A DNA stretch of 64,000 bases from Mobula birostris. Lineage: Eukaryota. The notes beneath the pieces were generated by a model. The model had not been told where the DNA came from. It worked only from the letters and a program-made list of their open reading frames with translations, and did not search any database. This document shows positions 3,126-60,872 of this stretch, piece by piece (the first letter of the stretch is position 1; each line of letters opens with the position of its first letter). Made by a program: the position numbers and the translations under genes. Location of the stretch: the NCBI RefSeq assembly GCF_030028105.1, contig NC_092399.1, positions 13,330,001-13,394,000 on the forward strand, given 5' to 3'.

Positions 3126-3926
3126 TCATTTAACAGATTGTTTGATCTCATGCAAAACACACAAGAAGCTGCAGGAACTCAGTAGGTCAGGCAGCATCCA
3201 GGGAAATGAACTAACAGTCAACATTTCGGGCCAAGATGCTTCTACAGGGCTGGAAAGGAAGAGGGAAGATGCCAGAATAAAAAGGTAGGGGTGGGGGAAG
3301 GAGGACTGATGGAAGGTGATGGGGAAGCCAGGTGGATAGGAAAGGTAAGGGGCTGCTGAGGAAGGAATATGATATGAGAGGAGAGTCGACCATAGGAGAA
3401 GGGGAAAGAGGAGGGCATCCAGGGGGAGGTGATCGGCAGGTGAGAAGAGGTGGGAGATCAGAGTGGGGAATAGAGGAAGAGGGGAGAGGGCGGGAGATGT
3501 TTTTTACTGGAAAGAGAAATCGATATTCATCCCATCAGGTTGGAGGCTAGCCAGACAGAATATAATGTGTTCTTCTCCACCCTGAGGATAGCCTTATCAC
3601 GGCACAAGAGCAAGCCATGGACCGACATGCCGGAACGTGAATGGGAATCTGAAGTAAAATGTTGGGCCACCGGCAGGTTCTGCTTTTGGTGAACAGAGTG
3701 GAGGTGCTCGACAAAGCGGCCCCCCAGTTTATGACGGGCGTCACCAACGTAGAGGAGGCTGCATCGGGAGCGGCAGACACAATAAGCAACCCCAACAGAT
3801 TCGCAGGTGAATTGCTGCCTCACCTGGAAGGAGTGTTTGGGGTCCTGAATGGAGGTGAGAGAGGAGGTGAATGGGTAGGTGTAGCAGGAATAAGTGCTGG
3901 GAGGGAGATTTGTGAGAAGGGGTGAA

Positions 3927-4222
3927 TTTTATTTTATTTTATCTTATTTAGGTACAGCACAGAGTTGGTCCTTCTAGCCCTTCAGCTTCGTCACCCAGCA
4001 ACCTCTGATTTAACCCTAGCCTAATCATGGGACATTTTACAATGACCAATGAACCTACCAACCGGTATGTCTTTGGGTTGTGGGAGGAAACTGGAGCACC
4101 CAGAGAAAACCCGTGCGGTCACGGGGGAACGTATAAACTCTCTACAGACAACAACGGGAATTGAACCTGGGTCAACTGTACTGTAAAGCGTTGTGCTAAC
4201 CACTACGCTACCATACCACCCC
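3927..4222 (-). mobile_element. tRNA-derived V-SINE (HE1-like)
   Basis: On the minus strand: A/B-box tRNA head (GGTAGCGTAGTGGTTAG...GGTTCAATTCCC), V core (GGGTTTTCTCTGGGTGCTCCAGTTTCCTCCCACA), CR1-like 3' end and (TAAAA)n tail. Confidence 0.85.
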
Positions 4223-4513
4223 AACTGGACAGTGGAATCATGGAGAGAGCAATCCCTGTGGAAAGTGTGTGGGGGGGGGGAGGTAAAGATGTGTTTGGTG
4301 GTAGGATTCCTTTGGAGATGGCTGAAGTTGCGGAGTGTGGTGTGTTGGATGTGGAGGCTGAAGGGGGGATAGCTTAGGACAAGAGGAACTCTTATCACTG
4401 TTAAGGCAGCAGGAAGGTGGGGTGAGTGGGGAATGGAGGAGATGCAGGTGAGGGCAGCATCAACGGTGGAGGAAGGGAAACCCCGTACTTTGAAAAAGAA
4501 GGATATCTCTGAT

Positions 4514-5452
4514 GTCATAGTCATAGTCATAGTCGTAGTCATATTTTATTGATCCCGGGGGAGATTGGTTTTCATTACAATTGCACCATAAATAATAAAT
4601 AGTCATTGAACCATAAATAGTTAAATAGTAGTATGTAAATTATGCCAGTAAATTATGAAGTAAGTCCAGGACCAGCCTATTGCCTCAGGGTGTCTGACCC
4701 TCCAAGGGAGGAGCTGTAAAGTTTGATGGCCACAGGCAGGAATGACCTCCTATGACGCTCTGTGCTGCATCTTGGAGGAATGAGTCTCTGGCTGAATGTA
4801 CTCCTGTGCCCACCCAGTACATTATGTAGTGGATGGGAGACATTGACCAAGATGGCATGCAACTTAGACAGCATCCTCTTTTCAGACACCACCGTGAGAG
4901 AGTCCAGTTCCATCCCCACAACATCACTGGCCTTACGAATGAGTTTGTTGATTCTATTGGTGTCTGCTACCCTCAGCCTGCTGCCCCAGCACACAACAGC
5001 AAACATGATAGCACTGGCCACCACAGACTCGTAGAACATCCTCAGCATTGTCCGGCAGATGTTAAAGGACCTCAGTCTCCTCGGGAAATAGAGACAGCTC
5101 TAACCCTTCTTGTAGACAGCCTCAGTGTTCTTTGACCAGTCCAGTTTATTGTCAATTCGTATCCCCAGGTATTTGTAATCCTCCACCATGCCCACACTGA
5201 CCCCCTGGATGGAAACAGGGGTCACCGGTACCTTACCTTTCCTCAGGTCTACCACCAGCTCCTTAGTCTTTTTCACGTTAAGCTGCAGATAATTCTGCTC
5301 ACACCATGTGACAAAGTTTCCTACCGTAGCCCTGTACTCAGCCTCATCTCCCTTGCTGATGCATCCAACTATGGCAGAGTCATCAGAAAACTTCTGAAGA
5401 TGACAAGACTCTGTGCAGTAGTTGAAGTCCGAGGTGTAAATGGTGAAGAGAA
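4514..5452 (-). mobile_element. Rex1/Babar-like LINE, 5'-truncated (RT C-terminus)
   Basis: ORFs 5100-5471 (LQKFSDDSAIVG, LNVKKTKELVVD, YKYLG) and 4677-5048; (GACTAT)n tail; closely similar copy at 29787-30742. Confidence 0.88.
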
Positions 5453-5498
5453 CACTCGTGGAAAGGAACACTCATCCTAGTAACAGGAAATGAGAAAA

Positions 5499-5746
5499 TC
5501 AAATCCAAACAACACGCACAGCACACACAAAATACTGGAGGAACTCAGCAGGCCTGGCAGCATCTGTGGAAAAAAGTACAGTCGATGATTCGTGCCGAGA
5601 CCCTTCGGCACGACGGCCCTGCCAAAGGGTCTCGGCCCGAAACGTCGACTGTACTTTTTTCCACAGATGCTGCCTGGCCAGCTGAGTTCCTCCAGTATTT
5701 TGTGTGTGTTGTTTGGATTTCCAGCATCTTCAGATTTTCTCTTGTT
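5499..5746. mobile_element. Fold-back (palindromic) Penelope pLTR pair with two degenerate hammerheads
   Basis: 5523-5607 is the near-perfect reverse complement of 5625-5709; possible TSD TGAGAAAA (5491-5498 / 5747-5754). Confidence 0.8.
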
Positions 5747-6057
5747 TGAGAAAAGAGAATACCATTTTTACCGGAAGCAGGATCGGAAGAGGTATGGTCA
5801 AGATAGCCGAGAGGAGAATGATGTGTTGTATGCGGAGGCTCATGGGGTTGATCTCATTGCTGTTTATTGAGCCTGCCCTGTGCAAATTGGATGCAATGCA
5901 TTTATTTTCAAAAAGTACTTAAATTGGCTGTGAACCTATATAAGAGTGTTTGCCTCCTTTGCTGACACCAGTTCCAATTCCAGCATCTACTGCTACTCTT
6001 AACAATAATCTTTTCAGCTCCTTTGAAGTAAGCCTGTCCCATGTTAAAATTTCATTA

Positions 6058-6225
6058 ATACAAGAGATTCTGCAGATGCTGAAAATCCAGAGTAACATTG
6101 ACAAAATGGTGGAGGAACTCAGCAGGTCAGAAGTCCAGATAAAGGGTCTTGGCCTGAAACATCAACTGTTTGTTCATTTCCAGAGATGATACCTAACCTG
6201 CTGAGTTCCTCCAGCATTTCGTATG
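6058..6225. mobile_element. Short fold-back Penelope pLTR derivative
   Basis: TGGAGGAACTCAGCAGGT ... ACCTGCTGAGTTCCTCCA arms around a degenerate hammerhead (6132-6168). Confidence 0.7.
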
Positions 6226-7394
6226 TTAATTTTACTTTTCATAATTTAACTTTCACTTACATTTTCATTATCTTCTCTGAAGTTATGTTTCTGGTGTGTT
6301 GGTAATGTTTAGCCACTTGCTGACTCTACCCCGTATCTTTGATATTGCCTTTGGTTGAGGCTTACATACTTTATCCATTAATAAGCATAGTTATAAAGTT
6401 GCTTTAAAAAAACAAAGAATGGCTTCAAATGGTGAAGAATGCTGAAGGGCTAAGGCATGTTAATGTTTTAGCTCAGAATGTAGTAACATGTTTGGTAGAT
6501 TGGTGAGATTTTGCCTTCACATCTGTTCTTTTAAAGTATTCTCTTGTGAATTAAATAATTGATAATGAATCTCATCGGGAGTACTGTTGCTGCACCTAAT
6601 CCAACGTGGTTGTTGTGATGTGAATGGAGTCAATGGAGAAACACTGAAGTTAGTGGATATATTCACCAAAAACAAGCAGCAGACATCATATTGAGACACT
6701 CTAGTAAGAAGAGGCCTCCCAACCCGATATTACATGACATTTTTATATGCTAAAGATCAAAGATGCTAAAGATCAAAGGTAACAGCAGGACAATTCTGTT
6801 GTTACAATGTACTGTATCTACAAGGCTTCCTTTAAATTATATATAGTTCTCAAAGATATCCTCCTTCACACCCACACACCAGACACTCAAAATGAATGTT
6901 AGTTCCCATTGACTTTCTCTCTCGATTCATGCATACGCAGACATGAAGTGATTGGGTGTTTCCTGGTTTGAAATCAACCCCAGTCTGTCGCTGCTGGGAG
7001 CCTTTTGCTCAGAGCTGCATTTTAAATTCAATCTGTAGTCCACAATCAAATCTGAAGACTGTTTGCTATATACCCTAACTCCAGAATATGCCTGAACAGT
7101 GGTGATGCTCCAGTACATTATCTACAAGGAGGTGGTGTTGTCAATCTCACCCATCAAGGTGGTCCACTGTGGGAAAAGTAGTAGGTCACTGCAGTCCACA
7201 GTCAAATGCCGACCAACGTCTGCTTGCTTCTTGTACAGCAATGGGGGAAATTTGAGTGAAATAACTCAGCCATCTTCTTGCATTGCAAATGAAGTATGCC
7301 ACTAAAATGTTCAGAGAGGAGGGGACAAAAAAATCACATTTAAAGCAGAAAGTAACAAAGTGAGGCATTGGGCCTGTTGTTGTTGGTTCTTTCC

Positions 7395-16857: not shown

Positions 16858-17021
16858 GTAATTGAAACAAGCACAATTTGATCAGGATTTTGTATATAAT
16901 TACTATTTAATAATATTGGTCACTGTTTTATTTTGGTCTTGTTATTTGTTGATTCACAATGATTAAACATAATGGATATCATGTTGTACAAATCCCTAGT
17001 CTTTGTGGTATAAACACAAGA

Positions 17022-17155
17022 GATTTTGCAGATGCTGGAAGTCCAAAGCAACACACACAAAATGCTGGATGAACTCAGCAGGTCAGGCAGCATCTATGGA
17101 AAAGGGTAAAAAGTCGAAGTTTGGGGCTGAGACCCTTCTTCATGTCCTGAAGAAG
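17022..17155 (-). mobile_element. Penelope pLTR fragment with the start of a fold-back
   Basis: AAACACAAGAGATTTTGCAGATGCTGG...GAGACCCTTCTTCATGTCCTGAAGAAG. Confidence 0.75.
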
Positions 17156-17496
17156 TATGATGGTTTGCTATTTGAACACCATAAACAGAATATTTATTTT
17201 TCTCAGCATCTTGACAAATGTGCTTTACCTTCAATCGGTTGCTATAGAAATGATATCAAATAAAGAAGTGCTCAAAATCAATAATGATCACACCAGATCA
17301 AATAATATCCAGGAAGGGTCTCTGCATTTAATATTACTACCCCCACACAACACTTTCTTGATCTCTTTCCCCATTCAATAACGCATGCAACTAGTTCTCC
17401 TTCTCAAAAACTTTAAATATCTACTTTGAAGCTTAAATTGTCTTTGTATGGTACCTTGTCAGTGAATTGGGATCGAAAGTTTATTACAATAATGCA

Positions 17497-17875
17497 ACAC
17501 ACACAACGTGCTGGAGGAACTCAGCAGGTCAGGCAGCATCTGTGGAAATGAATAAACAGTCGACATTTCGGGTTGAGACCCTTCACCAAGACTGAGAAGG
17601 AAAGGGGAGGATGCCAGAATAGAAAGGTGTGGGGAGGGGGATAGAGGCTAGCTGGAAGGTGATAGCTGAAGCCAGGTGGGTGGAAAAAGGTCAAGGGCTG
17701 GAGAAGAAGGAATCTGACAGGAGAGGAGAGTGGCCCACAGTCCTGAAGAAGGGTCTCACTCTGAAACATTGTCTATCTATTCATTTCCATAGGTGTTGCC
17801 TGTCCTGTTGAGTTCCTCCAGCATTTTTTGTGTGTTGCTTTGGATTTCCAGTATCTGCAGATTTTCTCGTGTTTG
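17497..17875. mobile_element. Fold-back Penelope pLTR pair with TSD
   Basis: Inverted pLTR arms; 10-bp TSD CAATAATGCA (17487-17496 / 17876-17885); degenerate hammerheads at ~17558-17593 (-) and ~17739-17775 (+). Confidence 0.82.
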
Positions 17876-18375
17876 CAATAATGCACATGGGCACGCACCT
17901 CAAGTAAAACAATCTAAAATCCTTTGATCCTATAGTCCATTGTAAATTATATCTAGCATCCTGGGACATATTTCAACCTTCTTTTGGATTGGAACAATGT
18001 GGTCAAAATTCAAATGCTTAAAACTGTGTGGTCAAAATGAAACTTAACATGAAAGATTAAGACCTCTATGAGTACCTGTTGAACTGACTTAACATGCTAG
18101 TGAAAATATGACTTTCCTAGTGTCATGATTTCTGTGAGAATAATGATTACTATGCTTAAAAGCAGCTTTATGAACACCTAAGATCCCAAAATATTCCACG
18201 TAAATGAAAAGACAGATTTTCATTTATCTCTTCTTACGAACATCCATCGTTAAGTTTTAAGTTGCTTGCCAAGTTATAAAATATGATCATACCTTGAAGC
18301 AGATGTTACATGATAACATAATTCTCCATATGTGTCCAAAATGCTCTGTTTTTCAGCTTTTTAAAGTAAATCAGT

Positions 18376-19179
18376 ATGTTTGCTATTGAGGCACTGGGAG
18401 CCCCTGAAGTTTCCTCAAGTTCTCAACTTTGCAACAGAACGCATGAACTAGAAATCAGGAGTGAAGCCATTAGTATGACAGATGTCAAACAGGACATGAA
18501 TTCTAACTTTGTGGTAGAGCGATCCAGCAAGAATGAGATCTTTGGCAAGCTTCCGTCTGAAGGGACCGCATTGAGAAATAGTCCTCAACTGAAAAATGAA
18601 CCGGATTTGCAAATGAAGAAAGAGAAGGGCAGTCCTTTTTCCCTGAGTTTGGAGTCAGGGAGCACCAAACCACCTTCAGGAGAGCGTGTCCGAATTCCAC
18701 CAGAGGGAGCCGAAATGGGCCACCCCAGCAAACTTACCAAGGTTGTGGATTGTGAAGAGCTTACTGTCTCTCCCTCAGATGACAATGGCTATTCCAGCAG
18801 CTGCTTGAGTATCGAAAGTCCAGATAGTGTAGAAGGAAACATCTGGGAGGCAGGTGAGACTGTCAAGAAGGATAAACTGGATCCTTGGCAACAAGCTGAT
18901 ATTGAAAGCATTCCAGGGACTCCACCTGCTGCAGACTCTTTCCTGCCTTCAATATTTGAAGCAGTCCAGAGTCTTCAAGAGAAGCAAAGATTCAAAGAGC
19001 AAGAGAAAGAGAAGCACCAAACCCAAGTGATCATGTACCGCCGCTTGGCCTTGCTGCGATGGATCCGTAGCCTCCAGCAGAAAGTCGTGGACCATCAACA
19101 CCGGCTGCAGGAGAGCTACGACACCATCCTGAGCAACCGCAAAGAGCTGCTGAAGTTCATCAAACAGGGAGTTGTCTAG
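18376..19179 (+). CDS. C1orf216: UPF0500 protein C1orf216 homolog (267 aa, single coding exon, C-terminal coiled coil)
   Basis: Starts MFAI like the human protein. Conserved blocks PPEGAE, SPSDDNGYSSSCLSIES and KEQEKEKHQTQVIMYRRLALLRWIRSLQQKVVDHQHRLQESYDTILSNRKELL recognised from memory of C1orf216. Splice acceptor CTGTTTTTCAG ends at 18356; in-frame TAA at 18367-18369 fixes the start codon. Confidence 0.93.
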   Translation: MFAIEALGAPEVSSSSQLCNRTHELEIRSEAISMTDVKQDMNSNFVVERSSKNEIFGKLPSEGTALRNSPQLKNEPDLQMKKEKGSPFSLSLESGSTKPPSGERVRIPPEGAEMGHPSKLTKVVDCEELTVSPSDDNGYSSSCLSIESPDSVEGNIWEAGETVKKDKLDPWQQADIESIPGTPPAADSFLPSIFEAVQSLQEKQRFKEQEKEKHQTQVIMYRRLALLRWIRSLQQKVVDHQHRLQESYDTILSNRKELLKFIKQGVV

Positions 19180-20110
19180 CAAGAGAGTGACCAGTGCATG
19201 TTGCGTGGAGTCTCACAAACCTCAGTAACTGCCTTCTCTCCTGCGATCAGTTTCAGTAAAACTCACTTATTCATCTTAGAAACTCGGTGACTGAAGTCAG
19301 AAAATGTAAGCAACATTAAATGTATCATTGTTTGACTGGATGAGAGGGCATGCTTCCCACTATCTTGCTGTTTCTTGAAGAGATATTTCCCCCTTATTTT
19401 TAAGGCTGCTTTCTGAGATGCACGAGGAAGTAAACTGCTGAACAATGGAGATTGAGTAGGGAAACCGTTCTCAACCCTGGCTGGGTCACCTGGGCAAGAG
19501 CGTCCCATATTGAAAGACCCAATACACCCGATGACCCATTGTTGTTACATCACTGATGATGACGCGCATCCTAGGATCGCAGCATCAGTCAAATTGTTGG
19601 TTATGGTAATCACTTCATCTCTACTGAGATCTGTTTTTATTTTGTAAAAAGAAAATTGCTGTTGCATCCCTGTATAATCTGGAAAGGCTATTTCCAGTCA
19701 AAAAGGTTACATTAGGATCTTGCCCTGTTGCATTTTGCAGCTGACATGTTCCTGTGCTATATATTTTTTGTTTCTTTATCACCTTGTTTTTAAACCAACT
19801 CCACACTTTGCTATCCTTTTAAAATGTAACTTTTTTTTAATGATGTCCTTATTACTCAGTCAACAAAGTAGAGTGATTGATGTTGCTTCAGATTTATTCC
19901 CCTTCTCCCTCGAAGTTGAAGCTGACATTTGATTTTAAAAAAAGGAGCTGAGGATTTTCCTTGTTGCACATGCAGTAAATGTGCAGATCCTGATATTATT
20001 CCAACTTTTGTTTGCTTTATCGTCAGGAGTTTTTGGTTGCATTTATCCTGCTGACTCAGATTTTTTCTTTGGTGTGCTTGAAGCATATTGACACTTCTCA
20101 TTAGTTAGGC

Positions 20111-20191
20111 CAGAAGTCCCCAATCTTTTTTATGCGATTGATTCTTACTATTAACTGAGGGGTCTGAGGACCCCCAGGTCGAGAAACGCTG
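20111..20191. mobile_element. hAT MITE copy in the putative C1orf216 3' UTR
   Basis: Inverted copy of the 2082 family; 8-bp TSD AGTTAGGC/AGTTAGTC. Confidence 0.7.
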
Positions 20192-20424
20192 AGTTAGTCT
20201 GTACTTGGTTCAATTTTACATATAAAGATCAAATGGAACTAAAGAAATGTGCTGATTTGTGAAATACTCTTCTATTCGTATTTAATATGATATGAATTAA
20301 AATTAAAGTCCTTTTAGTTTGAAACTCATGGATCAATAATTTTAAGCTTAGTCACAAACATTAATTATATTAGATGTTGGATCTAGAAAAAATATGCTTT
20401 ACCTGTAACAGATAATCAACTTTT

Positions 20425-20430
20425 AATAAA
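20425..20430 (+). promoter_or_regulatory. Candidate polyadenylation signal of C1orf216
   Basis: AATAAA ~1.25 kb downstream of the stop codon in AT-rich sequence; another lies near 20555. Confidence 0.35.
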
Positions 20431-21022
20431 AATGTAAAGATTGTATTTAAAGCTAGCATGTCAAATAACTATATTGTATCCATTTGCTCATGGAGATCAT
20501 TTATATATGGATAAGATTCATAAGATGTGCTCTTAAGTCAGAAATTGCATTGTCAATAAAGGCAGCAAGGCATTGTGAGCTGAACAATATTTTGAGAGAT
20601 GGACCTTTTATAAGGATACCTGGTTCTGAAGCTGTTCTGGTACTGACTGATCTTATTGTTTGGATAACACGTGGCTGAAATTTGAGGGAACCCTCTCATG
20701 GATTGGGTTGAACGTTATTTGATGGTAGGGGTTCTCTGAAAATCTGAAACTACTAGCTTTTTCTTTCTGGTTTGTTTAAAGCATTGAGATATTCACGTGG
20801 GCATGATTATCTTCTTGTAAAGATAGCTACTATCATGTGTAATGTAAGCAGACGGACAGAAGAAACAATTATTCCGTATGTATTATGGCTATGTTTGTCA
20901 TCTGACCTACCTTAATAATGTTTGCCCAAATATAGCTGCAATTTTTTTTCTGAATGACTACCATCATCATGATGTGTGTGTGGTTAATAGGAATTTATGA
21001 TGTGCAATTATTAATTAATATA

Positions 21023-21146
21023 AAGTGAACTATTATATATTAATGACTATTTATAGAACTATATCAGTGCTATCATGCCTACATGAAGTGAACTATTATA
21101 CATTCATGACTATTTATAGAACTTTATCTATGCTATCATGTCTATA
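21023..21146. repeat. Tandem duplication, 2 x 63 bp
   Basis: AAGTGAACTATTATA...GCTATCATG units start at 21023 and 21086. Confidence 0.85.
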
Positions 21147-22959
21147 ATACTAAACACCTTCAAATATGAAGTTTTTGTCAAAGTTTGTCTTATTACTAAA
21201 TAAGTCAGTGATTTGTTAATGGGTTCTTTACATTTAGTTTAAAAACTGTAGAAATAATCCACTAATATGAAGAACTGATAAGCAAGATTTTGAGCCTGCT
21301 CTGAGATTTGGACCCAAGGACCCAATTTGGTTCAGAATGTTTTTGGTTTGCTTCAATTTTATGCATGAATAGTTGAGTTTTACCCCCTTTTCGAGTGTTG
21401 GTCTTTTTTTTTCTCTTTAATTGCGTTCTTTCGGGTTCCTTGCTTTGTGGCTACCTGCAAGCAAGCAAATCTCAAAGTTGTATCATCTACACATTCTTTG
21501 ATAATAAATGTACTTTGAATCTTTGATACTATGAACTGATACTGTGATACATGGGGATGAGATGTGATGTCCATATGGTCCGAATATCACAGTTATTTAG
21601 CAAACATTTAGCATGAGAAATTCTAAGCAATTCCAACGAAAGTAAATGTCTGCAGTGTTAAAGAGTTAGGAAATATACTTAAACACAAGAGATTCTGCAG
21701 ATGCTGAAAAAAATACTTTAAACTGTTTGAAACTAATTTGCACATTTAAAAAAGTTCACATTTGATCACCAAAGGGGAAAGAGGTGCACTTAAATGCATT
21801 AATTATTGATGAGATTCCTTATATTATCATTAAATATTCCCCATTCCGTATCGCCGTTCTGCCAGCACCTCCTGGAGTGGATCAGAATAATGAATTCCTA
21901 GAAGAACCCCAGTCCATTTGCCTCATCCCCTTTTCACTCCACAAATCTTGCTTAATAAGAAAAGTGGCTTTCTAATGTGTTTCAATGCAAAATCAACCAC
22001 TTCCTGTGAAATTGGACTAAGCACTTCCAGGCATAATTCACCTTAACACAGCTGATGATTCTCTGGCATCATTCATGCTTGTAATGACAACACTGACATG
22101 TGAAATGCTCATCTCAGCCTCCCTGGCGGAAGTTGGAGGAATAATGTGCAACTTATGACCTTTTTTAACTTAATATAAACAGGTCCAGTCCCTGCAGCAT
22201 GTGGCAAAGAGACATGAATTAAATGGTTCCCTCTGAGTCATCAGTGTGTACTGTCTGCATCTACCTGGCTCTGTTTTAATGATCTGTGTATTTCACACAT
22301 CATTACCTAGTCTCTCAGCACTTGCATGGGAGTGGTGTCTGCTGCATCTTTGATATAGCATTCAATCAAACTTTGCTGATAATTACAAGGGGAAAGGATG
22401 TGGCCTTTCAGACTGAAGATGAGTTCCCCTCCCACATTTCCTTAGTATGTTCCCTCGCCTTGTTAGGGCTTTTTTTTGGGGTTCGCATGTATAGCAAATA
22501 ACGTCAACAGCTAACTTCAGTCACCAATCTTCAGGTCTGAATATAGACTGTAGATTAAATATAAAATGCATATTAAATATAAAGTTCCTAAGAGCCGTGA
22601 ACTGCAGTTAATTGGAAGATCAGACAAAGCTGGTTTAAATTCGTTTGGGTGTCTGTAATGTGGATGTGAAGAGGGAATTGTGAAAGTTGTGTGTAATTCA
22701 AAGGAAGCATTGTGGAGGCATTGTAAATATGGAATCGTCCTGTGATCTTTAGCACACAAAATGTCGTGTGCTGTTGGGTCAAGCAGGCCTCTTCCTCCAA
22801 AAGGGTCTCAGTGTGATGCCTGTTGGCCCTCATTTTGTCGAATAAAGAGACTACTTCATTTCTACCAGGAACTTTTCTCAAGCGACTTTGTTCATGCGAC
22901 ACCCTCATTGAAACCTGCTGTAATCTGGCGGTCTTGAAAAGAACCACTTTAAGTTTGGA

Positions 22960-23090
22960 CAACAGGAATTCTGCAGATGCTGGAAATTCAAGCAACACAC
23001 ATAAAAGTTGCTGGTGAACGCAGCGGGCCAGGCAGCATCTCTAGGAAGAGGTGCAGTCGACGTTTCAGGCCGAGACCCTTCATCAGGACT
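22960..23090 (-). mobile_element. Solo 130-bp Penelope pLTR unit carrying a hammerhead, with TSD
   Basis: Flanked on both sides by TTTAAGTTTGGA; the minus-strand 5' end coincides with the start of the ribozyme. Confidence 0.85.
23055..23090 (-). ncRNA. Minimal type I hammerhead ribozyme
   Basis: Minus strand AGTC-CTGATGA-AGGGTCTCGGCCT-GAAA-C-GTC-GACT: intact core, stem I AGTC/GACT, GUC cleavage triplet. Confidence 0.75.
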
Positions 23091-38733: not shown

Positions 38734-38863
38734 CCTGATATGTAATTAGTTTTTTTTCACTTCGAGATTTTATTTCCTCTTTGTTTTGTATTTTTCTTGC
38801 GGGTCTCATTCCTGCACTGGCCCACGGCCTCCAGCTTTTCATCCCTTTTTCTTTCTCTGCTGC

Positions 38864-38864
<1 letters not shown>

Positions 38865-38906
<42 letters not shown>
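38865..38906. repeat. (CA)n microsatellite
   Basis: About 20 CA units, read directly. Confidence 0.95.
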
Positions 38907-38907
<1 letters not shown>

Positions 38908-41622: not shown

Positions 41623-41914
41623 GGCCCCACCTCCCCCTCGTACCCCATCTGTTACTTATTTTTATGCACACATTCTTTCTCTCACTCTCCTTTTTCTCCC
41701 TCTGTCCCTCTGAATATACCTCTTGCCCATCCTCTGGGCCCCCCCCCTTGTCTTTCTTCCCTGACCTCCTGTCCCATGATCCTCTCGTATCCCCTTTTGC
41801 CTATCACCTGTCCAGCTCTTGGCTCTATCCCTCCCCCTCCTGTCTTCTCCTATCATTTTGGATCTCCCCCTCCCCCTCCAACTTTCAAATCCCTTACTCA
41901 CTCTTCCTTCAGTT

Positions 41915-41950
41915 AGTCCTGACGAAGGGTCTCAGCCTGAAACGTCAACT
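41915..41950 (+). ncRNA. Minimal type I hammerhead ribozyme in the pLTR
   Basis: AGTC-CTGACGA-AGGGTCTCAGCCT-GAAA-C-GTC-AACT; core intact, one stem I mismatch. Confidence 0.65.
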
Positions 41951-43182
41951 GCACCTCTTCCTACAGATGCTGCCTGGCCTGCTGCGTTCACCAGCAACTT
42001 TGATGTGTGTTGATTGTATTTCATTTGCCACTTTCTTGTCCATTCTCCTAATCTGTCTAAATCTGTCTGCATCCTACCTGTTTCTTCAACACTATCTGCC
42101 CCTCCACCAATTTTCATATCATCTGCAAACTTGGCAACAAAACCATCTATTCCATCATCTAAATCATTTACATACAGCATAAAAAGAAGCGGTCCCAAAA
42201 CTGACCTCTGTGGAACACCACAAGTCACTGGCAGCCAACCAGAAAAGGATCCTCTTATTCCCACTCACTGCTTCCTACCAATCAGCCAATGCTCTAACCA
42301 TGTTAGTAACTTTCCTGTAATACCATGGGCTCTTAACTTGGTAAGCAGCCTCATGTGTGGCACCTTGTCAAAGGCCTTCTGAAACTCCAAATATACAACA
42401 GCCACTGCATCCCCTTTATCTATCCTACTTGTAATCTCCTCAAAGAATTCCAACAGGTTTGTCAAGCAGGATTTTCCCTGAAGGAAACCATGCTGACTTT
42501 GTACTATCTTGTCCTGTCTCACAAAGTACTCCATCACCAAATCCTTAACAATTGACTCTAACATCTTCCCAACCACTGAGATCTATAATTCCCTTTCTGT
42601 TGTCTTCCTCCTTTCTTAAAGAGTGGAGTGACATTTGCAATTTTCCAGTCCTCTGGCACCATGCCAGAGTCCAATGATTTCTGAAAGATCATTTCTAATG
42701 CCACCACAATCTCTAACGATACCTCTTTCAGAACCCTAGGGTGCAGTTCATCTGGTCCAGGTGACTTATGTACCTTTAGGTCTTTCAGCTTTTTGAGCAT
42801 CTTCTCTCTTGTAATAGTAACTGCACCAGCTTCTCTTCCTTCACACACTACAACATCAGGCATACTACTAGAGTCCTCTCCAGTGAAGACTGATGCAAAA
42901 TACTAATTTAGTTCATCAGCCATGACCCCCGTTATAATTTCTCCTGCCTCATTTTCTAGCGGTCCTATATCCACTCTCACTTCTCTTTCATTTTTAATAT
43001 ACTTGAAAAAACTTTTACTATCCACTTTGATATTATTTGCTAGCTTGCTTTCATATTTCATCTTTTCCCTTCGAATAATTTTTGTGTGTCAACCAAATCA
43101 TTGTCTTATTGCCAGGAAAATGGTATAAAACAATCTCTAAATCCACATCCTTTAACATTTTAATGGGCATGGGCCATTTTAG

Positions 43183-45329: not shown

Positions 45330-46382
45330 GACCATGTCAGTCCATGGCCTCCTCTACTGCCACGCTGAGGCCACACTCAGGTTGGAGGAGCAACACCTTA
45401 TAATCCATCTGGGAGCCTCCAAGCTGGTGGCAAGAATATTGATTTTTCACCCCCGACTTCACCATTACCCATTCCTGTTTCCTTCTCTCACCTTATCTCC
45501 ATTTCTGCCCATCACCTCCCTCTGGTGCTCCTCCCCTTCCCTTTCCTCCATGGACTTCTGTCCTCTCCTACCAGATTCCCCCTCCTCCAGTCCTTCACAG
45601 ACACCCCACCTCTCCCGGAAGTTCCGGGAGTTTCCTGCATGTTGATAGTGGCTCCCTGATGCCCACAAGTTATATACAATATCCCGGAAATAGATATTTC
45701 TTTTGAGAGCGAGAGAGAGAGAGAGCAAGAGAGAGCACGAGCGAGAGAGAGAGCGAGCGCCATGGCAGAGTGTTCCAAAGAAAAGAAAATATAAAACGTA
45801 CGTCACTCCAGACTACACTAAAGTGTACCCCTGCCTTATAGGGGTCAAAAATAATGACAGTGTTGCTCGCTGCACTGTTTGCAACAGTGACTTTTCTATT
45901 GCCCACGGTGGGTTAAGACTGTAAAAGACATGTTGAGTTGAGTTTAACAGGTGTCATTCGTTCATTAGCATAGCTAACGTTATTTAAACTAGCTGGCTAG
46001 CTGCTAAGGAGCTCTCTATCACAGACATCCCACCTCTCCCGGAAGTTCTGGGAGTCTCCTGCAAATTGATGGAGCTACCTCCCTGAAATGAGTTTTTGCA
46101 GGTTGGGATGTCTGTCTTCATATCTTTCACCAATCAACTTCCCAGCTCTTTACTTCACCCCCTCCCCCCTCTCCCTCCTCTCCAAAGTTTCACTCATTAC
46201 CTGCCACTTTATGCTACTTCCTCCCCTCCCCCCTGACCTCTTTAGTCTGGCTCCTTGTGCTTTCCTTTCCAGTCCTGATGAAGTGTCGACTGTTCACTCT
46301 TTTCCATGGATGCTGCCTGGCCTGCTGAGCTCCTCCAGCATTTTGAGTGTGTTGCAGCACCTGCAGACTTTCTGACGTTTGA
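45330..46382 (+). mobile_element. Decayed Penelope-like 3' fragment split by a hAT element
   Basis: MSVHGLLYCHAEATLRLEEQHL; pLTR with stem-II-deleted hammerhead AGTCCTGATGAAGTGTCGACT (46271-46291). Confidence 0.75.
45598..46114 (+). mobile_element. Internally deleted hAT-like transposon retaining the N-terminal zinc finger
   Basis: TIRs CAGACACCCCACC...GGTTGGGATGTCTG; a second left end at 46022; peptide ARCTVCNSDFSIAHGG typical of hAT transposase N-termini. Confidence 0.65.
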
Positions 46383-47230
46383 GAAAAATGATCAGAAGGG
46401 GAGAAATGCGTAGAGGCCAGGTTTTATTCAAATTAACATTATCCATCATATTCTGGATTACCTGGGGAACAATACCGCAATTTGTATTTATTTAGGAAAC
46501 TTGATGCAGAAAATTTGCAATGAGATATAATAGTGGCAAGGCTTTTTTCTCAGTTGTCTAATGAGCACAGAGCTATTTCAAGGAGACTAAGGAGATAGGA
46601 AGTTTCAGGCAAGTGGAAGGGTTTAGAGAGAATTTCAAAATTCTGCGCAAGTATAGCTGAATGCACAACTACTAGTAATAGATAAATATGTGCGTGGCCA
46701 GAGACAGATGGTTCAGAGGCTGGTTATTCCAATCCAAGATCGGGAAAAAAAAACTAAAGGAATGTGGATTATGAGTCAGAAAGACATCCAGACACTCAGT
46801 TGGATAACTTGAATTGGAAATTATTGAGAACTATTGTATTTACTCATCTGCAGTTGTGATTTATAAAATGAGCCTTTTGGAATAGATAAATTTTGACAGA
46901 AAATAAATTGGTAACTCTATTTAAATCTAGATATTCTGCAGCATTTGTCTGTTTAGGAATTATATGGAAATACAAAATCAAGCGGCCATTTCCTGCTTCC
47001 TCTCCACTCAGGTCACTGGAGTTAGACACTGTTGCCTAGAAACTGGCTTTTACCTCCCTTGGTGCACTAACACCCACCTTGAAAATAGCTGTGAAAATGG
47101 GCAAACTAATTTTAAAAGCAGCAGAATGCGGTTTTGTATGTAGGATTATGCACCAAACACAACCTGGGGACTGCATGCAGAGCTTCCAGCTGCCGTATCA
47201 ATCACTGGAAAATGAGTTGGTGCTTCAAGA

Positions 47231-47706
47231 AACACACATAAAAGTTGCTGGTGAACACAGCAGGCCAGGCAGCATCTATTGGAAGAGGTACAGTCGACGT
47301 TTCGGGCCAAGACCCTTCGTCAGGACTAACTGAAAGAAGAGCTAGTAAGAGATTTGAAAGTGGGAGGGGGAGGGGGAGATCCAAAATGATAGGAGAAGAC
47401 AGGAGGGGGAGGGATGGAGCCAAGAGCTGGACAGGTGATTGGCAAAAGGGATATGAGAGGATCATGGGACAGGAGGCCCAGGGAGAAAGAAAAGGGGGAG
47501 GGGGGAAGCCCAGAGGATGGGCAAGTGGTATAGTGAGAGGGACAGAGGGAGAAAAAGGAGAGAGAGAAAAAGAATGTGTGTATATAAATAAATAACGGAT
47601 GGGGTACGAGGGGGAGGTGGGACATTAGCGGAAGTTTGAGAAGTCAATGTTCATACCATCAGGTTGGAGGCTACCCAAATGGAATATCAGGTGTTGTTCC
47701 TCCAAC
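47231..47706 (-). mobile_element. Penelope-like 3' fragment with TSD
   Basis: TSD CTTCAAGA (47223-47230 / 47707-47714); closely matches the reverse complement of ~41540-42010. Confidence 0.88.
47292..47327 (-). ncRNA. Minimal type I hammerhead ribozyme (best-preserved copy)
   Basis: Minus strand AGTC-CTGACGA-A-GGGT(CTTG)GCCC-GAAA-C-GTC-GACT: core nucleotides, stem I and stem II intact. Confidence 0.8.
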
Positions 47707-48049
47707 CTTCAAGAGCTCCTTCCACTGAGGAATCTCCCTCTGCCACAGCCTGAGTATTGTTACAGTGAAGTCTGACACTGGGAAGAGAGGGAAAAAAAGC
47801 ACAAGGGATGGATACATGGTGGTTGCTTATGTATGTGGGCAGCTCCCAACTTGATGAGCTGGCCCAAATAACTTCCTTATCCCCTAATGACCATAAGCCA
47901 CTGCACAGTGCGGGCCGTTTAAAGAGCCAATAATCACAAAATGCAATGTCAAGAACAGTGAAGAAATCATGAATGGTGTGGCTCCATGATTTCGATCACT
48001 GGAAACTGAGGCCTTCAATTGCTGCGTGCCAGATATTGACATCAAAGTG

Positions 48050-48251: not shown

Positions 48252-49394
48252 TAATGTCACATTGTTGACTGCCGCACAATGTGTCCTTCCGACAGCTTCC
48301 GTCTTTGCCAACAGAAGGTGAGTGGTGAGGGGCCTGTGACACCACCAGGTGTTAGAATATTGCTGAGAAAATATCACCGATGCTGAGGTAAATTGTCTGT
48401 TAAAATACCCAGAAAATCTCCCGACAGGCACAGTTCAGCCGAGAATACACACGGAAGACATGGGCACAATGTATCCAATTTTTCAGCTTGTAATGGACCT
48501 CAAATGGTAATAATTTTTAAATACTTTAAGTCGTTAAATTTATTTTTTTAAGTTACTATTGCAGTTCCATGAGCAAACAATTTCTCAAACAATTGATTCA
48601 AAATCATGAAACATTTAAGCATGGACTTTCCTAGAATATCGCTCTTTTACAGATATTTTTCTAGGTGTTTTGACAATTTTATGATTGAAAGCATGCTGAA
48701 CTATTTGCTTAATGTTTGATTTTGTGTCTGATTCTACTGTATACGATCTTGCGACTCTGCAGGGTTACTTCTAAGAGCAATTTTCTTTTTGTGGTATAAT
48801 CCTGGATACTTTCCTTGTTTACAAGAGTGGAAACAGTGCTGTAGGTGGGGCAGTTTTCATAACGTTGGAGAGGAAATATTTCAGTAGGTGTACAAGCTGC
48901 TTTGCTTTGTCTTGGTTAATAATTTCTTATTGACACAAGCGTGTCAGTAAAAATCCAGTGGAGGTAGAGCAATTACACAAATATAATGCCCCAAAACACC
49001 CATCTGAATGTTTGGAATTCAGGACTAGCTGTATGTCAGATGACATTGTAGGCTAATGTAATTGATGGATACGTACATACATAATTCACGACCACTGACA
49101 CCGAGTTGGGGGATCACTTTATGAGGCTATTCTGATGCGAGGACGTAATCACATAAAGTTCTGTTACCGCGTTTTTGGGATCAGTGTTTGGAGCACGGCT
49201 CTGCTTAAACATAAAATGCCTCGCACTACCTTATTTGCGAAACCTACAACATTATGCCTGTCACCAATCACAAGTTCAAATGTAATTTAAAAACGCAAAC
49301 ACGAGGAATTCTGCAGATGCTGGAAATTCAAGCAACACACATCAAAGTTGCTGGTGAACGCAGCAGGCCAGGCAGCATCTCTAGGAAGAGGTAC

Positions 49395-49430
49395 AGTCGA
49401 CGTTTCAGGCTGAGACCCTTCATCAGGACT
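49395..49430 (-). ncRNA. Minimal hammerhead ribozyme
   Basis: AGTC-CTGATGA-AGGGTCTCAGCCT-GAAA-C-GTC-GACT. Confidence 0.7.
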
Positions 49431-49668
49431 AACTGATAGAAGAGCTAGTAAGAGATTACTAGGTATGTGGATGGTAGGGGACTGAAGGGCCATGGTCCCA
49501 GTGCAGGTTGATGGGATTAGGCAGTTTAAATGGTTCAGCATGGACTAGATGGGCCCAAGGGCCTGTTTTAGGGCTGTACTTTTTCTATAACACTATAAAT
49601 AGTTAAAATATAAAAAAAAACAATTGTAATTCCTTAAAAGTAATCTCTTATTAGCTCTTCTTTCAGTT

Positions 49669-49704
49669 AGTCCTGACGAAGGGTCTCAGCCGGAAACGTC
49701 GACT
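49669..49704 (+). ncRNA. Minimal hammerhead ribozyme (weakened stem II)
   Basis: AGTC-CTGACGA-AGGGTCTCAGCCG-GAAA-C-GTC-GACT. Confidence 0.6.
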
Positions 49705-50207
49705 GTACCTCTTCCTAGAGATGCTGCCTGGCTTGCTGTGTTCACCAGCAACTTTGATGTGTGTTGCTTCAAATGTGATTGTTGTTCCACTATACGCATG
49801 TATGCATCCGAACGAAGCAGGGTTCCTCCACGGCCAGGGTGCAAAATACAGTGCATCCGGTCACAGACAGCACGCAGAACATACAGTTACGATCCAGCGC
49901 ATCCGGTCACACAAGTAATATTAGCACAAATGCCTGAGTGATATGGCCTGAAGATTGATGGTGCATGGGATGTAATCCTGGAGCCACGTGTCTGAGATCT
50001 CTAGTGTTGGAGTAATACTGGGACCTAATTCTGCTGGTCCTGGCACAAAATCTCAGGTCCTATTGATTTCAATGAGAATTCCATAGCTGTGGATTAAAAT
50101 CACACAGGAAGGTATGCTTTTTTAAAATTACTTTGTATTATTGTAATAATCTGTAATTAATTACAATTGAGTCCAAATGTTTTTTTATATATATTTAACT
50201 ATTTATA

Positions 50208-54322: not shown

Positions 54323-56043
54323 CATAAGACCATAAGACAAAGGAGCAGAAGTGGGCCATTCGGCCCATCGAGTCTGTTCCGCCATTTTATCATGAGCTGA
54401 TCCATTCTCCCATTTAGTCCCACTCCCCCGCCTTCTCACCATAACCTTTGATGCCCTGACTACTCATATACCTATCAATCTCTGCCTTAAATACACCCAA
54501 TGACTTGGTCTTCACTGCTGCCCGTGGCAACAAATTCCATAGATTCACCACCCTCTGACTGAAAAAATTTCTTCGCATTTCTGTTCTGAGTGAGTGCCCT
54601 TCAATCCTTAAGTCATGCCCTCTCGTACTAGACTCCCCCATCATGGGAAACAACTTTGCCACATCCACTCTTTCCATGCTTTTCAACATTCGAAATGTTT
54701 CTATGAGGTCTCCCCTCATTCTTCTAAACTCCAAGGAATGCGGTCCAAGAGCGGACAAACGTTCCTCACATGTTAACCCTCTCATTCCTGGAATCATTCT
54801 AGTGAATCTTCTCTGTACTCTCTCCAACGTCAGCACATCCTTCTTAAATAAGGAGACCAAAACTGCCCACAGTACTCCAAGTGAGGTCTCACCAGTGCCT
54901 TATAGAGCCTCAACATCACATCCCTGCTCCTATACTCTATTCCTCTAGAAATGAATGCCAACATTGCATTCACCTTCTTCACCACCAACTCAACCTGGAG
55001 GTTAACCTTAAGGGTATCCTGTACGAGGACTCCCAAGTCCCATTGCATCTCAGAACTTTGAATTCTTTCCCCATTTAAATAATAGTCTGCCTGTTTATTT
55101 CTTCTGCCAAAGTGCATAACCATACACTTTCCAACATTGTATTTCATTTGCCACTTCTTTGCCCATTCTTCCAATTTATCCAAGTATCTCTGCGCACTCT
55201 CCGTTTCCTCAGCCCTAACGGCCCCTCCACCTATCTTCGTATCGTCAGCGAACTTAGCCACAAAGCCATCTATTCCATTACCCAAATCATTGATGTACAA
55301 TGTAAAAAGAAGCGGCCCCAACCCAGACCCCTGTGGAACACCACTGGTAACCGGCAGCCAACCAGAATAGGATCCCTTTATTCCCACTTTCTGTTTCCTG
55401 CCAATCAGCCAACCCTCTATCCACGTATGTAACTTTGCCATAATTCCATGGGCTCTTATCTTGTTAAGTAGCCTCATGTGTGGCACCTTGTCAAAGGCCT
55501 TCTGAAAATCCAAATATACAACATCCACTGCATCTTCGTTGTCTAGCCTACTGGTAATTTCCTCAAAAAATTGTAATAGGTTTGTGAGGCATGATTTTCC
55601 TTTAAGGAATCCATGCTGACTTCTGCCTATCTTGTCATATGCCTCCAGGTACTCTGTAACCTCATCCTTGACAATCGACTCCAGCAACTTCCCAACCACC
55701 GACGTCAAGCTAACAGGTCTATAATTTACTTTTTGCTTCCTTGCCCCCTTCTTAAATGGCGGAGTGACATTTGCAATCTTCCAGTCCTCCGGAACCATGC
55801 CAGAATCTATCGACTTTTGAAAGATCATCGCTAATGCCTCTGCAATCTCCACAGCTACTTCCTTCAGAACATGAGGGTGTATTCCATCTGGTCCGGGAGA
55901 TTTATCTACCTTTAGACTATTCAGCTTCCTGAGTACTTTCTCTGTCGTAATTGTGACTGCGCACACTTCTCTTCCCTGCCACCCTTAAGTGTCCAGTATA
56001 CTGCTGATGTCTTCCTCAGTGAAGACTGATGCAAAATACTCGA
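54323..56043 (-). mobile_element. CR1 LINE, 5'-truncated, with a largely intact RT reading frame (54830-55966)
   Basis: KSPGPDGIHP, NYRPVSLTS, QHGF, LDFQKAFDKVPH, GVPQGSGLGP, KFADDTK; frameshift into ORF 54414-54860; CATAAGAC tail. Confidence 0.92.
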
Positions 56044-56605: not shown

Positions 56606-56673
56606 CAGGGTTTCCCGAATTCGGGTCCAGGGACATCTTGTTTAATGTCATAAAAAAAGGCTGATAACTCCTG
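56606..56673. mobile_element. hAT MITE copy
   Basis: Degenerate copy of the 2082 family; flanks GTCTGTAT/GTCTATAC. Confidence 0.55.
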
Positions 56674-58175: not shown

Positions 58176-58192
58176 TTCTTTATAAATATATA

Positions 58193-58225
<33 letters not shown>

Positions 58226-59324
58226 TTACTGTAATTCATATTTTTTCTATTACAAAAGCAACAAATTTCATGACATATGCTGTTGATATTAAACCTGATT
58301 CGAAGTAACATACTGCCATGTAGATCCTTTGAATCTCCCCAAGAAGTCAAACGGAACCTCAATTTAATATCTCATTTGAGAAATGGAACTCCTGGTTGAG
58401 TAACTCTCCCTGAAATGTCAGTCTAGAAGATCTTTTCTGCAGTGGATGGAGTGAGATTTGAACCTCAGCAGCTAGGATGCTGGCAACCAAATTACATTTG
58501 ATATCGTACCAGGCACAAGTATGGAGTGGAAGGGATTCCTCCCATGTCCTATCTTTATGGAAGCTATAATTTCTTTCTAAAATAATAGGCCTGCTATAAC
58601 TCGATTACTGAGATGCTGCTGACCTAAAACTCATGGGTGCCTGATACCACAAGATTGGGAACTCGGGCCTGCAGCTGATGAGGCTATTAATTAGCAGCAG
58701 TGAGCAGGCTAATTATTAATTATTAGTCTCCTTACTGCTGAAAATATGCAACAGTGGCACCCTGCACCCTCAACGAAAGGGCACAAGACCACAAACACTT
58801 TTGATCCTTCCAGGCATAAAATGGGCTGAAGTCTGAAAGATTTCTCTCCGTTCAGATTATTTTCACCCTTTAACAAAACGCACAATAGCCATTTGCAGAT
58901 AGATCTACTGGGGTTGACAGGTTAACTAATGAAATATGCAAGCGGCTTGGAAATGGTCCACAGCCAGCATTTTCTACAAGGTTGAAGTCAACTCAGAAGG
59001 AGCCCCAGAGCTTCAACTGGAATTTGGGATGGAACTTTACCTCAGCTCTTCCAGCAGTTCACCTAGGCATTTCAGTCTTCTTTCATGGATAATCAGAGAC
59101 AAACTTGAAGTGAAGTCACTGTTAGAAATTAGTAGACAACACAACAGTCAATTTGTGCAGATTGGGTCTATGCATATATAGTAATGTGATAATCACGATA
59201 GAATCTTTCATGTTGGTAACTCCTTCATTGGCTGGCTAATACCGAACAGCTTCCTTTTTTGGTTCAGTGATACATTTGGCAAATTGAGTAAACTATATGT
59301 TGTGGTTTGAGACCTCCAAACTGT

Positions 59325-59590
59325 AAGGTTGAGGGTTCAGAGAGTTGAACACCAACATAACGTAGATCATTAGTTCAGTAAGGTACTGAGAGAGTGCTGC
59401 ACTATTAAAGCTACAGTACTTTGGATGAGACGCTGAACTGAGGAATATTCTTCCCTGGGATTAAGCAACACTCTGTGTGGCACAGAGCCGTGGTTCTTCT
59501 GGTGACCTGAGCTACGTGCAACACTCAGTTGACATCACCAAACGCAAGTCATTTGCTCATATGTGATGTTGCACTTTGGGGGATTTTGTC
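59325..59590 (+). mobile_element. Old Deu-core SINE
   Basis: GTACTGAGAGAGTGCTGCACT...GGATGAGACGCTGAACTGAGG matches the Deu core as recalled. Confidence 0.6.
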
Positions 59591-59713
59591 ATGAAGACTA
59601 ATTGGTAATATTGAAGGCACAGTGTAAATGGTAGATTATATTTTTACCAACCATGGGCTCAGTCTTTTCATTTATTGGTTGTGATATTTTCCAACTCTCA
59701 GAATAAAATATCT

Positions 59714-60330
59714 GGAGGGAGTTAGATATGGCCCTTGTGGCTAAAGGGATCAGGGGGTATGGAGGGAAGGCTGGTGCAGGGTTCTGAGTTGGATGATCAG
59801 CCATGATCATACTGAATGGTGGTGCAGGCTCGAAGGGCTGAATGGCCTACTTCTGCACCTATTTTCTATGTTTTCTATGTTTCTATCATAGAATCATAGA
59901 AAAGTACAGCACAAAAATAAGCCCCTTCAGCCAATCTGGTCCATGCCAAACCATTTAAACTGCCTAATCCTGTCGACCCGCACCCAGACCATTGCCATCC
60001 ATACCCCTACTATATACATCCCAACCAAAACTTCTCTTAAACACTGAAATCAAGCTTGCATGCACCACTTACACTGGTAGCTCATTCCACGCGCTCATGA
60101 TCCCCTTAAACTTTTCACCTTTCACCCTTAACCTATGACCGCTAGTTGTAGTCCCATCCAACTTCAGTGGAAAAAACCTACTTGCATTTACCCTCTCTAT
60201 ACTCCTCACAATTTTGTATGCCTCCATCAAATCTCCTCTCAATCTTCTACATTCCGAGGGATAAAGTTCTAAACTACTCAATCTTTCCTTATAACTCAGG
60301 TCCTCCAGACCTGACAACATCCTTATAACA
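59714..60330. mobile_element. Two CR1 3' fragments tail to tail (59714-59885 +, 59886-60330 -)
   Basis: (TTCTATGT)n tail abuts a (CATAGAAT)n tail; ORF 60069-60320 RRLRGDLMEAYKI. Confidence 0.8.
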
Positions 60331-60640
60331 TCATTTTGAATTCCTGGGATGCATCTCTAAAGTGGTCATGTATTTCACCTGGATGAGGGTAATTGTGGTT
60401 TTGGTTTACTCAATTTGCCCAAAGTATCTCTGAACCACAGAATGACACAGCACAGAAGGAAACTCTTCAGCATTAGCCAGTTCCTGAAAGAGTTCTTCAA
60501 CCATTCCAATTAATCCACTCATCACTGAGAACTCTTTAAATACTTATCCAATCGTCTTTGGAAGATTATTCCTGGATCTGCTTCTTCTGTGTTTTCTGAC
60601 TGGCATTACATGACTGATCAAAGAACATGGTGTCAATTTT

Positions 60641-60872
60641 CACACACAAAGTGCTGGTGGAACACAGCAGGCCAGGCATCATCTATAGGAAGAAGTACAG
60701 TTGACGTTTCAGGTCGCGACCCTTCGTCAGGACTAATGGAAAAAAGAGATAGTAAGAGATCTGAAAGTGGGAGGGGGAGGGGGAGACCCGAAATGATAGG
60801 AGAAGACAGGTGGGGGAGGGATGAAGCCAAGATCTGGGAAGTTGATTGGCAAAAGGGATACAAGGCTGGAGA
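60641..60872 (-). mobile_element. Penelope pLTR fragment with hammerhead (60699-60734)
   Basis: Minus strand AGTC-CTGACGA-AGGGTCGCGACCT-GAAA-C-GTC-AACT. Confidence 0.82.

Follow-up and report, generated by a model that had tools for sequence, protein, structure and literature searches.

A 64,000-nucleotide (nt) stretch of the genome of Mobula birostris (assembly GCF_030028105.1, contig NC_092399.1, positions 13,330,001 to 13,394,000), hereafter termed the window, carries 17 short motifs which, judged from their sequence, are minimal type I hammerhead ribozymes derived from the terminal repeat of a very abundant retrotransposon family belonging to the Penelope-like elements (PLEs). The explanation favoured here, to which a probability of about 0.85 is given, is that these motifs reside in dead-end, 5'-truncated copies that likely no longer cut RNA and that have decayed neutrally after insertion.

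Motifs, carrier element and abundance

A preliminary description of the window had claimed about 17 hammerhead copies, and all 17 proved to be real in a 36-mer scan and in an nhmmer profile search. The ungapped scan with the 36-mer at 47292-47327 (minus strand) recovered 16 copies at no more than 13 mismatches, the actual range being 0-9, and a single match was obtained over 20 shuffles; the 17th copy, 46271-46291 (plus strand), lacks 15 nt from stem II to A15.1 in the standard hammerhead numbering, which is employed as in PMC4209133. The profile, constructed from the motif and its tail, gave 18 matches in the window, corresponding to the 17 copies and a weak inverted stub at 6093-6130, and none in reversed controls. 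Local enrichment of the motif was considered and rejected, the 17 copies against 12.8 expected (P=0.15) representing an ordinary density.

Six cores had been described as intact, which holds for 23055, 47292 and 49395, the only three of the 17 copies in which the core, the ACGU palindrome, stem I and stem II are all kept, and which are all located on the minus strand. Of the remaining three, 41915 and 60699 have an intact core but have lost the C2.1-G1.1 pair closing stem I, and a G.G mismatch occupies the closing pair of stem II in 49669.

The proposed minimal architecture with a loop-less helix III is borne out, since the CUGANGA, GAAA and UH core elements are arranged as in type I and accompanied by helices I and II, and ACGU is present in all three subfamily consensuses, which were derived from 41 young, 71 old and 7 third copies divided by their tail motifs (3 of 122 copies were dropped at locus edges). 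An unpaired nucleotide between A9 and 10.1 was also found, being A in 116 of the 122 in-register copies, and the 10.1-11.1 pair of these copies is G-C in 48 and G.U in 62, the youngest family carrying G.U. A T at 11.1 was likewise observed in the 3' motif of 19 of 20 copies with long open reading frames (ORFs; loci L031-L050), which would produce G.U at the normally conserved G10.1-C11.1 or, alternatively, a bulge-free A-U closure of stem II. A descriptor search of the window and of a random sample of 93 arbitrarily placed 10-kb loci (930 kb; seven of 100 requested places were nonexistent and were dropped) returned 18 matches, all from the present PLE family, with none in the reversed sequence and 0, 0, 0, 1 and 0 in five shuffles; by this descriptor, no hammerhead family other than that of the PLE was present in the 930 kb. 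The Infernal check that had been proposed does not detect the motif, since none of the eight matches of Rfam 15 in the window at E<=5 was a hammerhead.

The Penelope origin of the motifs was supported by hammerheads flanking the ORF, by Pfam matches to reverse transcriptase (RT) and GIY-YIG domains, and by mapping, which placed all window copies at the 3' end of a PLE reference element. A first look at the genome yielded 244,336 candidates for the ORF ending at 41622, and the 102 scored among them were 93-95% identical. Twenty loci were fetched, chosen among the scored matches for the longest open frames, and in all 20 a motif follows the matched ORF end downstream and shares its strand; in the window, hammerhead 41915 sits 293 nt past the ORF stop. 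Two of these loci (L032 and L033) display a hammerhead on each side of an ORF of 1016 or 1087 amino acids (aa), the motifs being 3.5-3.7 kb apart, which locates the motif in the pseudo-long terminal repeats (pLTRs). The single ORF encodes an RT followed by a C-terminal GIY-YIG endonuclease (EN): the Pfam matches are weak (RVT_1, E 6e-4 and 1.4e-5, below the cut-off; GIY-YIG, E 8.7e-5 and 6.4e-3), 359 homologs bear RT and GIY-YIG annotations, and the best named homologs come from a shark. In the L032 protein, CX4CxxC is matched once, at aa 883, alongside DKG and YIDD motifs, and a CX2-5CxxC linker lies between RT and EN as in Neptune. In PMC8557442, this linker is given for Neptune and Nematis and not for Penelope/Poseidon, and the preprint bioRxiv 10.64898/2026.07.22.740005 states that vertebrates hold Neptune and Poseidon PLEs. 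On these motifs and this report of vertebrate clades, the family likely belongs to Neptune.

Direct pLTR repeats, inverted truncated neighbours and an optional 30-40-bp tail were all found. The 3' ends of 58 young copies in the sample and the window cluster near +100 and +135 from the first motif base, which corresponds to the optional tail of PMC8557442 and to the two RT starts of PMC11167929, and many young short copies stand in head-to-head pairs or between target duplications. By their sequence, the short copies match the published anatomy of PLE insertions. In the mechanism proposed, reverse transcription would likely begin at either of two sites, separated by about 35 nt, immediately 3' of the motif, and would usually stop early, so that the motif and its tail would be the part most often inserted. 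The motif would likely be under selection only in active master elements, where cleavage after GUC would require two copies joined as a dimer by the ACGU palindrome and would probably be aided by the element protein, and copies would decay neutrally once inserted.

It is extremely unlikely that the short copies constitute an independent non-autonomous retrozyme or short interspersed nuclear element family replicating through circular RNA. Many copies are indeed 100-140 nt long, and retrozymes are reported in the preprint to derive from PLE pLTRs, with one chondrichthyan case; however, no array of two or more consecutive hammerhead-bearing units exists among the 17 window copies, which largely refutes the idea for the window, or among the strict copies of the 93 loci, no two of which lie on the same strand within any one locus, and on one PLE reference the young 5' ends occupy a wide range, starting at +142 and reaching past -899.

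A very large genome-wide pool of the motif had been surmised, and both the sample and exact-match counts bear this out. The 93 loci hold 186 remnants, that is 2.0 per 10 kb (bootstrap 1.67-2.35), which extrapolates to 0.67-0.95 million, about 0.8 million, for a genome size of 4.0 Gb. Of these remnants, 122 are in ungapped register, 44 keep the core letters and 14 are strict, leaving about 92% broken, and strict copies extrapolate to about 60,000 genome-wide. Exact genome matches amounted to 78,966 when CpG decay was allowed and to 41,778 for the intact type, with 0 in the controls of both. The intact-type copies, at least 41,778, exceed the approximately 4,000 motifs of the coelacanth and 9,000 of Xenopus (PMC4209133), which were counted by a different method.

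The copies and the other features of the window are listed below.

3148-3266, minus: 3' end of an old-family PLE; dead hammerhead 3216-3251; same-strand ORF remnants 3513-3886 and 4226-4509
5519-5615, minus: left arm of a head-to-head inverted pair; dead hammerhead 5580-5615
5615-5747, plus: right arm of the inverted pair, long tail; dead hammerhead 5615-5650
6132-6227, plus: old-family stub; dead hammerhead 6132-6167; weak inverted stub at 6093-6130
17010-17147, minus: old-family stub; dead hammerhead 17112-17147
17494-17641, minus: old-family stub; dead hammerhead 17558-17593
17739-17874, plus: old-family stub in host-gene sense, about 0.5 kb 5' of the last exon; core letters kept, palindrome broken (ACAT)
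18352-21520, plus: last exon of the host gene, a UPF0500 C1orf216 homolog; ORF 18370-19179 with DUF4653; hammerhead-free
22959-23090, minus: young insertion of 132 nt, solo, flanked by a target-site duplication of about 13 nt; hammerhead 23055-23090 intact, cut predicted at 23059/23058; antisense to the host gene
30823-30884, plus: old stub; dead hammerhead 30823-30858; inverted ORF-end fragment 30993-31039
32227-32728, plus: old-family ORF end and pLTR; dead hammerhead 32631-32666
38569-38738, plus: pLTR stub; dead hammerhead 38637-38672 (G12 to A)
40424-42022, plus: young 5'-truncated PLE; C-terminal part of about 400 aa with RT end, CX4CxxC linker and GIY-YIG, stop 41622; 3' part with a pLTR of about 295 nt, hammerhead 41915-41950 (core intact, stem I closing pair lost) and a short tail
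46271-46380, plus: old stub; hammerhead 46271-46291 with the 15-nt internal deletion
47224-47708, minus: end of a 5'-truncated PLE; intact hammerhead 47292-47327, predicted cut 47296/47295
49297-49457, minus: young stub, long tail; intact hammerhead 49395-49430; predicted to pair fully with 49642-49772 in a read-through transcript
49642-49772, plus: young stub, short tail, head-to-head with 49297-49457; hammerhead 49669-49704, stem II closing pair lost
60641-60861, minus: pLTR stub; hammerhead 60699-60734, core intact, stem I closing pair lost

A full-length element spanning 38637 to 41915 was ruled out, as the PLE match begins at 40424 and other repeats lie between. Fragments of an RT family resembling long interspersed nuclear elements (LINEs), with RVT_1 and endonuclease matches, were noticed at 54830-55984, 39673-40406, 33144-33704, 37279-38060 and 25986-28860; we take this family to be CR1-like. 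The young PLE at 40424-42022 appears to be inserted into such a fragment. About 33 kb 3' of the window, a fragment of an integrase core (rve; L148:3300-3629) is likely the remnant of a long terminal repeat element.

Two of the inverted pairs deserve description in their own right. The head-to-head pair at 5524-5707 gives the best Rfam match of the window, to MIR8670 with 82.8 bits (E 6e-15), under the gathering threshold of 150, and fold-back PLE insertions of this kind represent long double-stranded RNA hairpins able to mimic microRNA precursors. At 49297-49772, two young head-to-head copies spaced by 178 nt are 95% complementary across 134 nt, and a read-through transcript is predicted to form a very stable hairpin, a possible substrate for editing or for small interfering RNA production.

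Folding, partners and host transcripts

According to PMC4209133, a monomer with a loop-less helix III cannot form the active fold, and two RNAs pair ACGU with ACGU and swap their stem I arms; the published minimal hammerhead monomers showed no cleavage and the dimers were weak. For the present family, folding predicts a rod in which G5-A6-N7-G8 pairs with C15.2-G16.2-U16.1-C17 and the core is masked, the modelled probability of G5:C17 reaching 0.94-0.99 in six of seven distinct intact-type 36-mers. Predicted rod stability is highest with C at N7, which is what the youngest family carries. The energies calculated for 47292 were -11.9 kcal/mol for the active dimer, compared with -23.8 for a pair of monomers and -33.9 for the inactive duplex, values that are only indicative because the nearest-neighbour model ignores tertiary contacts of the core. 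Because pairing between the core and the cleavage triplet is predicted to trap the monomer in this rod, protein help would probably be needed, and the predicted fold fits the protein-dependent cleavage of PMC11167929, where a lizard PLE hammerhead cut only with the element protein, cleavage was dispensable in vitro and uncut RNA was the main template.

Suitable partners are rare. Among the first 100 intact copies, two have a same-strand intact partner within 1 kb and eight within 2.5 kb. The only close same-strand intact pair in the window is formed by 49395 and 47292, 2.1 kb apart, and no dimer appeared in any fold tried; in read-through RNA, the predicted structure is a 130-bp hairpin in which the inverted neighbour pairs along the whole of 49395.

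The sole host gene found is a homolog of C1orf216 with a DUF4653 domain, whose best named match is from a sawfish (82%). Contigs of four putative-RNA runs cover 18352-21520 continuously, with thin pieces extending to about 23550 in one run. No intact hammerhead occurs in the shown exons of this gene, the intact copy 23055 is antisense to it, and the three sense copies 5' of the last exon (5615, 6132 and 17739), which would be intronic given a CpG island about 4.5 kb before the window, are all dead. The 3' untranslated region (UTR), about 2.3 kb long, was observed to be nearly repeat-free, and at least 47% of the window is repeat. For a second gene over the intact copies, no credible Pfam match was obtained from 124 of 260 window ORFs and 130 of 254 flank ORFs, a search that short exons would escape; retroelement matches and weak coiled-coil matches in a LINE-like copy were the only returns, and the nearest proteasome-subunit exons are about 360 kb off.

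The preliminary description had envisaged a pool of working ribozymes that cut host transcripts. The sequence does not support such a pool, considering that about 92% of remnants are broken, stems I and II show no covariation, partners are rare, the predicted fold is auto-inhibited and the shown exons of the one host gene harbor no intact copy. It is very improbable that host pre-mRNAs are cut in vivo by some of the 40,000-60,000 copies with intact sequence, whether these paired in trans with another near-identical copy or were aided by PLE protein where it is expressed. Pairing would be open to any two of the 41,778 exact intact-type matches, since palindrome and stem I are common to all of them, the four putative-RNA runs are rich in repeat-derived contigs, and the Anolis PLE hammerhead cleaves once PLE protein is added (PMC11167929); these points are opposed by the inactivity of published monomers and the slight activity of dimers (PMC4209133), by the predicted energetic disadvantage of the active dimer, by the scarcity of same-strand partners and by the predicted blocking of the window's best pair in the 130-bp hairpin. 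A slight excess of CA over TG among decayed CpGs is in the direction expected from host selection against activity, but it is small and is seen in loop II too (35 vs 22). The intact copies are thus likely, as far as their sequence indicates, inert leftovers rather than cutters of host RNA.

Insertion joints, selection and decay

None of the 58 young copies has its 5' end at the cut site, whereas 20 end at positions 1-32 and one at positions 33-75, which implies that RT usually reads through the site. The young 5' ends (L053-L143, and 23090 in the window) were observed to cluster in the 5' half of the hammerhead, at positions 1-4, 10 and 26, often at inverted joints, and this pattern suggests that RT may stall or fold back at the rod.

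Comparison of the subfamily consensuses revealed that of the 36 motif sites only the free N7 separates young from old, vs 13 of 67 tail columns (Fisher p=0.03), and that young and third differ at 3 of 36 vs 18 of 66 (p=0.04), with no consensus change on a catalytic base. Given its conservation from one subfamily to another, the motif is likely of use to the element, and these differences modestly suggest selection on it in master elements.

After insertion, decay is close to neutral and almost symmetric at CpGs. Among the 78,966 matches, the palindrome CpG has become TG in 9,133 and CA in 10,467, and the cleavage-site CpG TG in 8,569 and CA in 9,083. Old copies display 0.121 mismatches per non-CpG core site vs 0.136 in the tail; the young values are 0.079 and 0.017, the core figure being inflated because copies are truncated inside the motif. 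The covariation check proposed earlier, where a lack of covariation had been named among the refuting outcomes, found none in stems I and II across copies, 319 of 500 shuffles of the 127 distinct rows reaching the score, although the test is low-powered because the families are near-clonal in the motif.

It is also conceivable, if somewhat unlikely, that the motif never cleaves even in active elements and acts as a protein-binding, promoter or RT-pausing hairpin, or merely hitch-hikes. Templates look uncut (0/58), 19 of the 20 long-ORF young copies have G.U at 10.1-11.1, the young consensus C7 is predicted to strengthen the inactive rod, and each full-length copy has one palindrome-broken motif; moreover, cleavage was dispensable in vitro with no reads ending at the site (PMC11167929), and hammerhead-less PLEs thrive (PMC8557442). 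On the other side, the catalytic positions are all kept in the three consensuses while N7, loop II and 11.1 vary, and cut-site joints are in excess.

This excess belongs to several results that weigh against the favoured reading of inert, neutrally decaying copies. At position 33, the cut site, 268 joints begin across the genome, compared with 98 at position 37 and 95 at position 30, a 2.8-fold excess indicating that some templates may be cut in vivo. The old and third consensuses differ at 4 of 36 motif vs 7 of 62 tail positions (p=1.0), which reveals no extra conservation of the motif, and the tail motifs used for the subfamily split were crude. The CA excesses at CpGs, 1.15 in the palindrome and 1.06 at the cleavage site, are both significant, and CA is the more disabling change. 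The penalty computed for the active fold is overstated by an unquantified amount, the energies omitting tertiary core contacts and no canonical hammerhead having been folded as control. Furthermore, the view of host transcription covers the C1orf216 part of the window and not the part with 47292 and 49395.

Inspection of the joints accounts for much of their excess. Among the first 30 joints at each position, 19 at position 33, 20 at position 37 and 13 at position 30 abut an inverted partner. Seven of the 30 viewed at position 33 meet position 1 of the partner via four stem I bases, and five meet position 15 via a 3-nt microhomology; by hand count, 46 of the first 100 listed position-33 joints have the three letters of the stem I class. 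According to these counts, most of the excess is explicable by microhomology without cleavage, although a cut template would yield the same stem I joint. Joints for which no element partner was found make up 7, 7 and 11 of 30 at positions 33, 37 and 30, which scales to an approximately two-fold excess from small numbers that include duplicates. Cut-site joints concern at most about 1-2% of young copies. As a separate observation, ten listed matches at L206-L211 (G000:C6, 35.6-36.3 Mb) share the same three junction letters at a spacing of 24-107 kb, and the six that were checked are identical, which points to a large tandem segmental duplication or an assembly repeat. The conjecture that the element protein licenses trans cleavage, that intronic or UTR copies would cut host RNA, and that cut-site joints would be the fossil of cleavage in germ cells, is regarded as very unlikely.

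Relation to known elements and significance

The motifs are of a known kind, the minimal hammerheads of PLEs (Cervera and De la Pena 2014), of which the present family appears to be a member notable for its scale. In common with the published examples, they are of type I, lack a helix III loop, have a palindromic 15.2-16.2 and an unpaired base between A9 and 10.1, possess a helix I of 4-5 bp, and occur once per pLTR, mostly solitary and genome-wide. They differ in a helix II of 4 bp, compared with 7-8 bp in Schistosoma, in the G.U instead of G-C at 10.1-11.1 of the youngest family, and in their little sequence diversity without covariation.

The carrier resembles the Neptune EN+ PLEs of Craig et al. 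2021 (PMC8557442) in its single ORF with RT and then C-terminal GIY-YIG, its DKG motif, CX2-5CxxC linker and CCHH-type residues, its pLTRs, its inverted 5'-truncated neighbours and its optional 30-40-bp tail. With PAc, a Poseidon element of Anolis carolinensis (Frangieh et al. 2024, PMC11167929), it shares a hammerhead near the pLTR-ORF junction, two RT start sites that set the tail, and uncut RNA as the apparent main template. The ORF of PAc starts inside the hammerhead, whereas the first ATG of the long ORFs lies here about 170 nt 3' of the motif start, and the Zn-finger linker found here is absent from Poseidon. Non-LTR retrozymes likewise have type I hammerheads from PLE pLTRs (bioRxiv 10.64898/2026.07.22.740005), but they are defined by tandem hammerhead-bearing units, unlike the dispersed truncations described here.

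The literature search found no report on elasmobranch PLE hammerheads, although the supplements of PMC4209133 and of the 2026 preprint might list shark or ray motifs; cartilaginous fish are not named among the hosts of minimal hammerheads in the available text of PMC4209133, and the terms Penelope, PLE and ribozyme have 0 occurrences in 10.1101/2025.06.08.657570. The role of PLE hammerheads is still called unclear in PMC8557442.

With about 0.8 million remnants and more than 40,000 intact-type motifs in one vertebrate genome, the family represents a quantitative extreme of a known phenomenon, and its more than 40,000 copies would be the largest sequence-intact hammerhead pool that we found reported. 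Greater importance would arise only if solitary copies cut host RNA, against which the present evidence argues; were the trans-cleavage reading true, the role of the PLE hammerhead would become testable from sequence. A family this large and young would provide statistical power for intron strand bias and joint positions to be used as tests of cutting in vivo.

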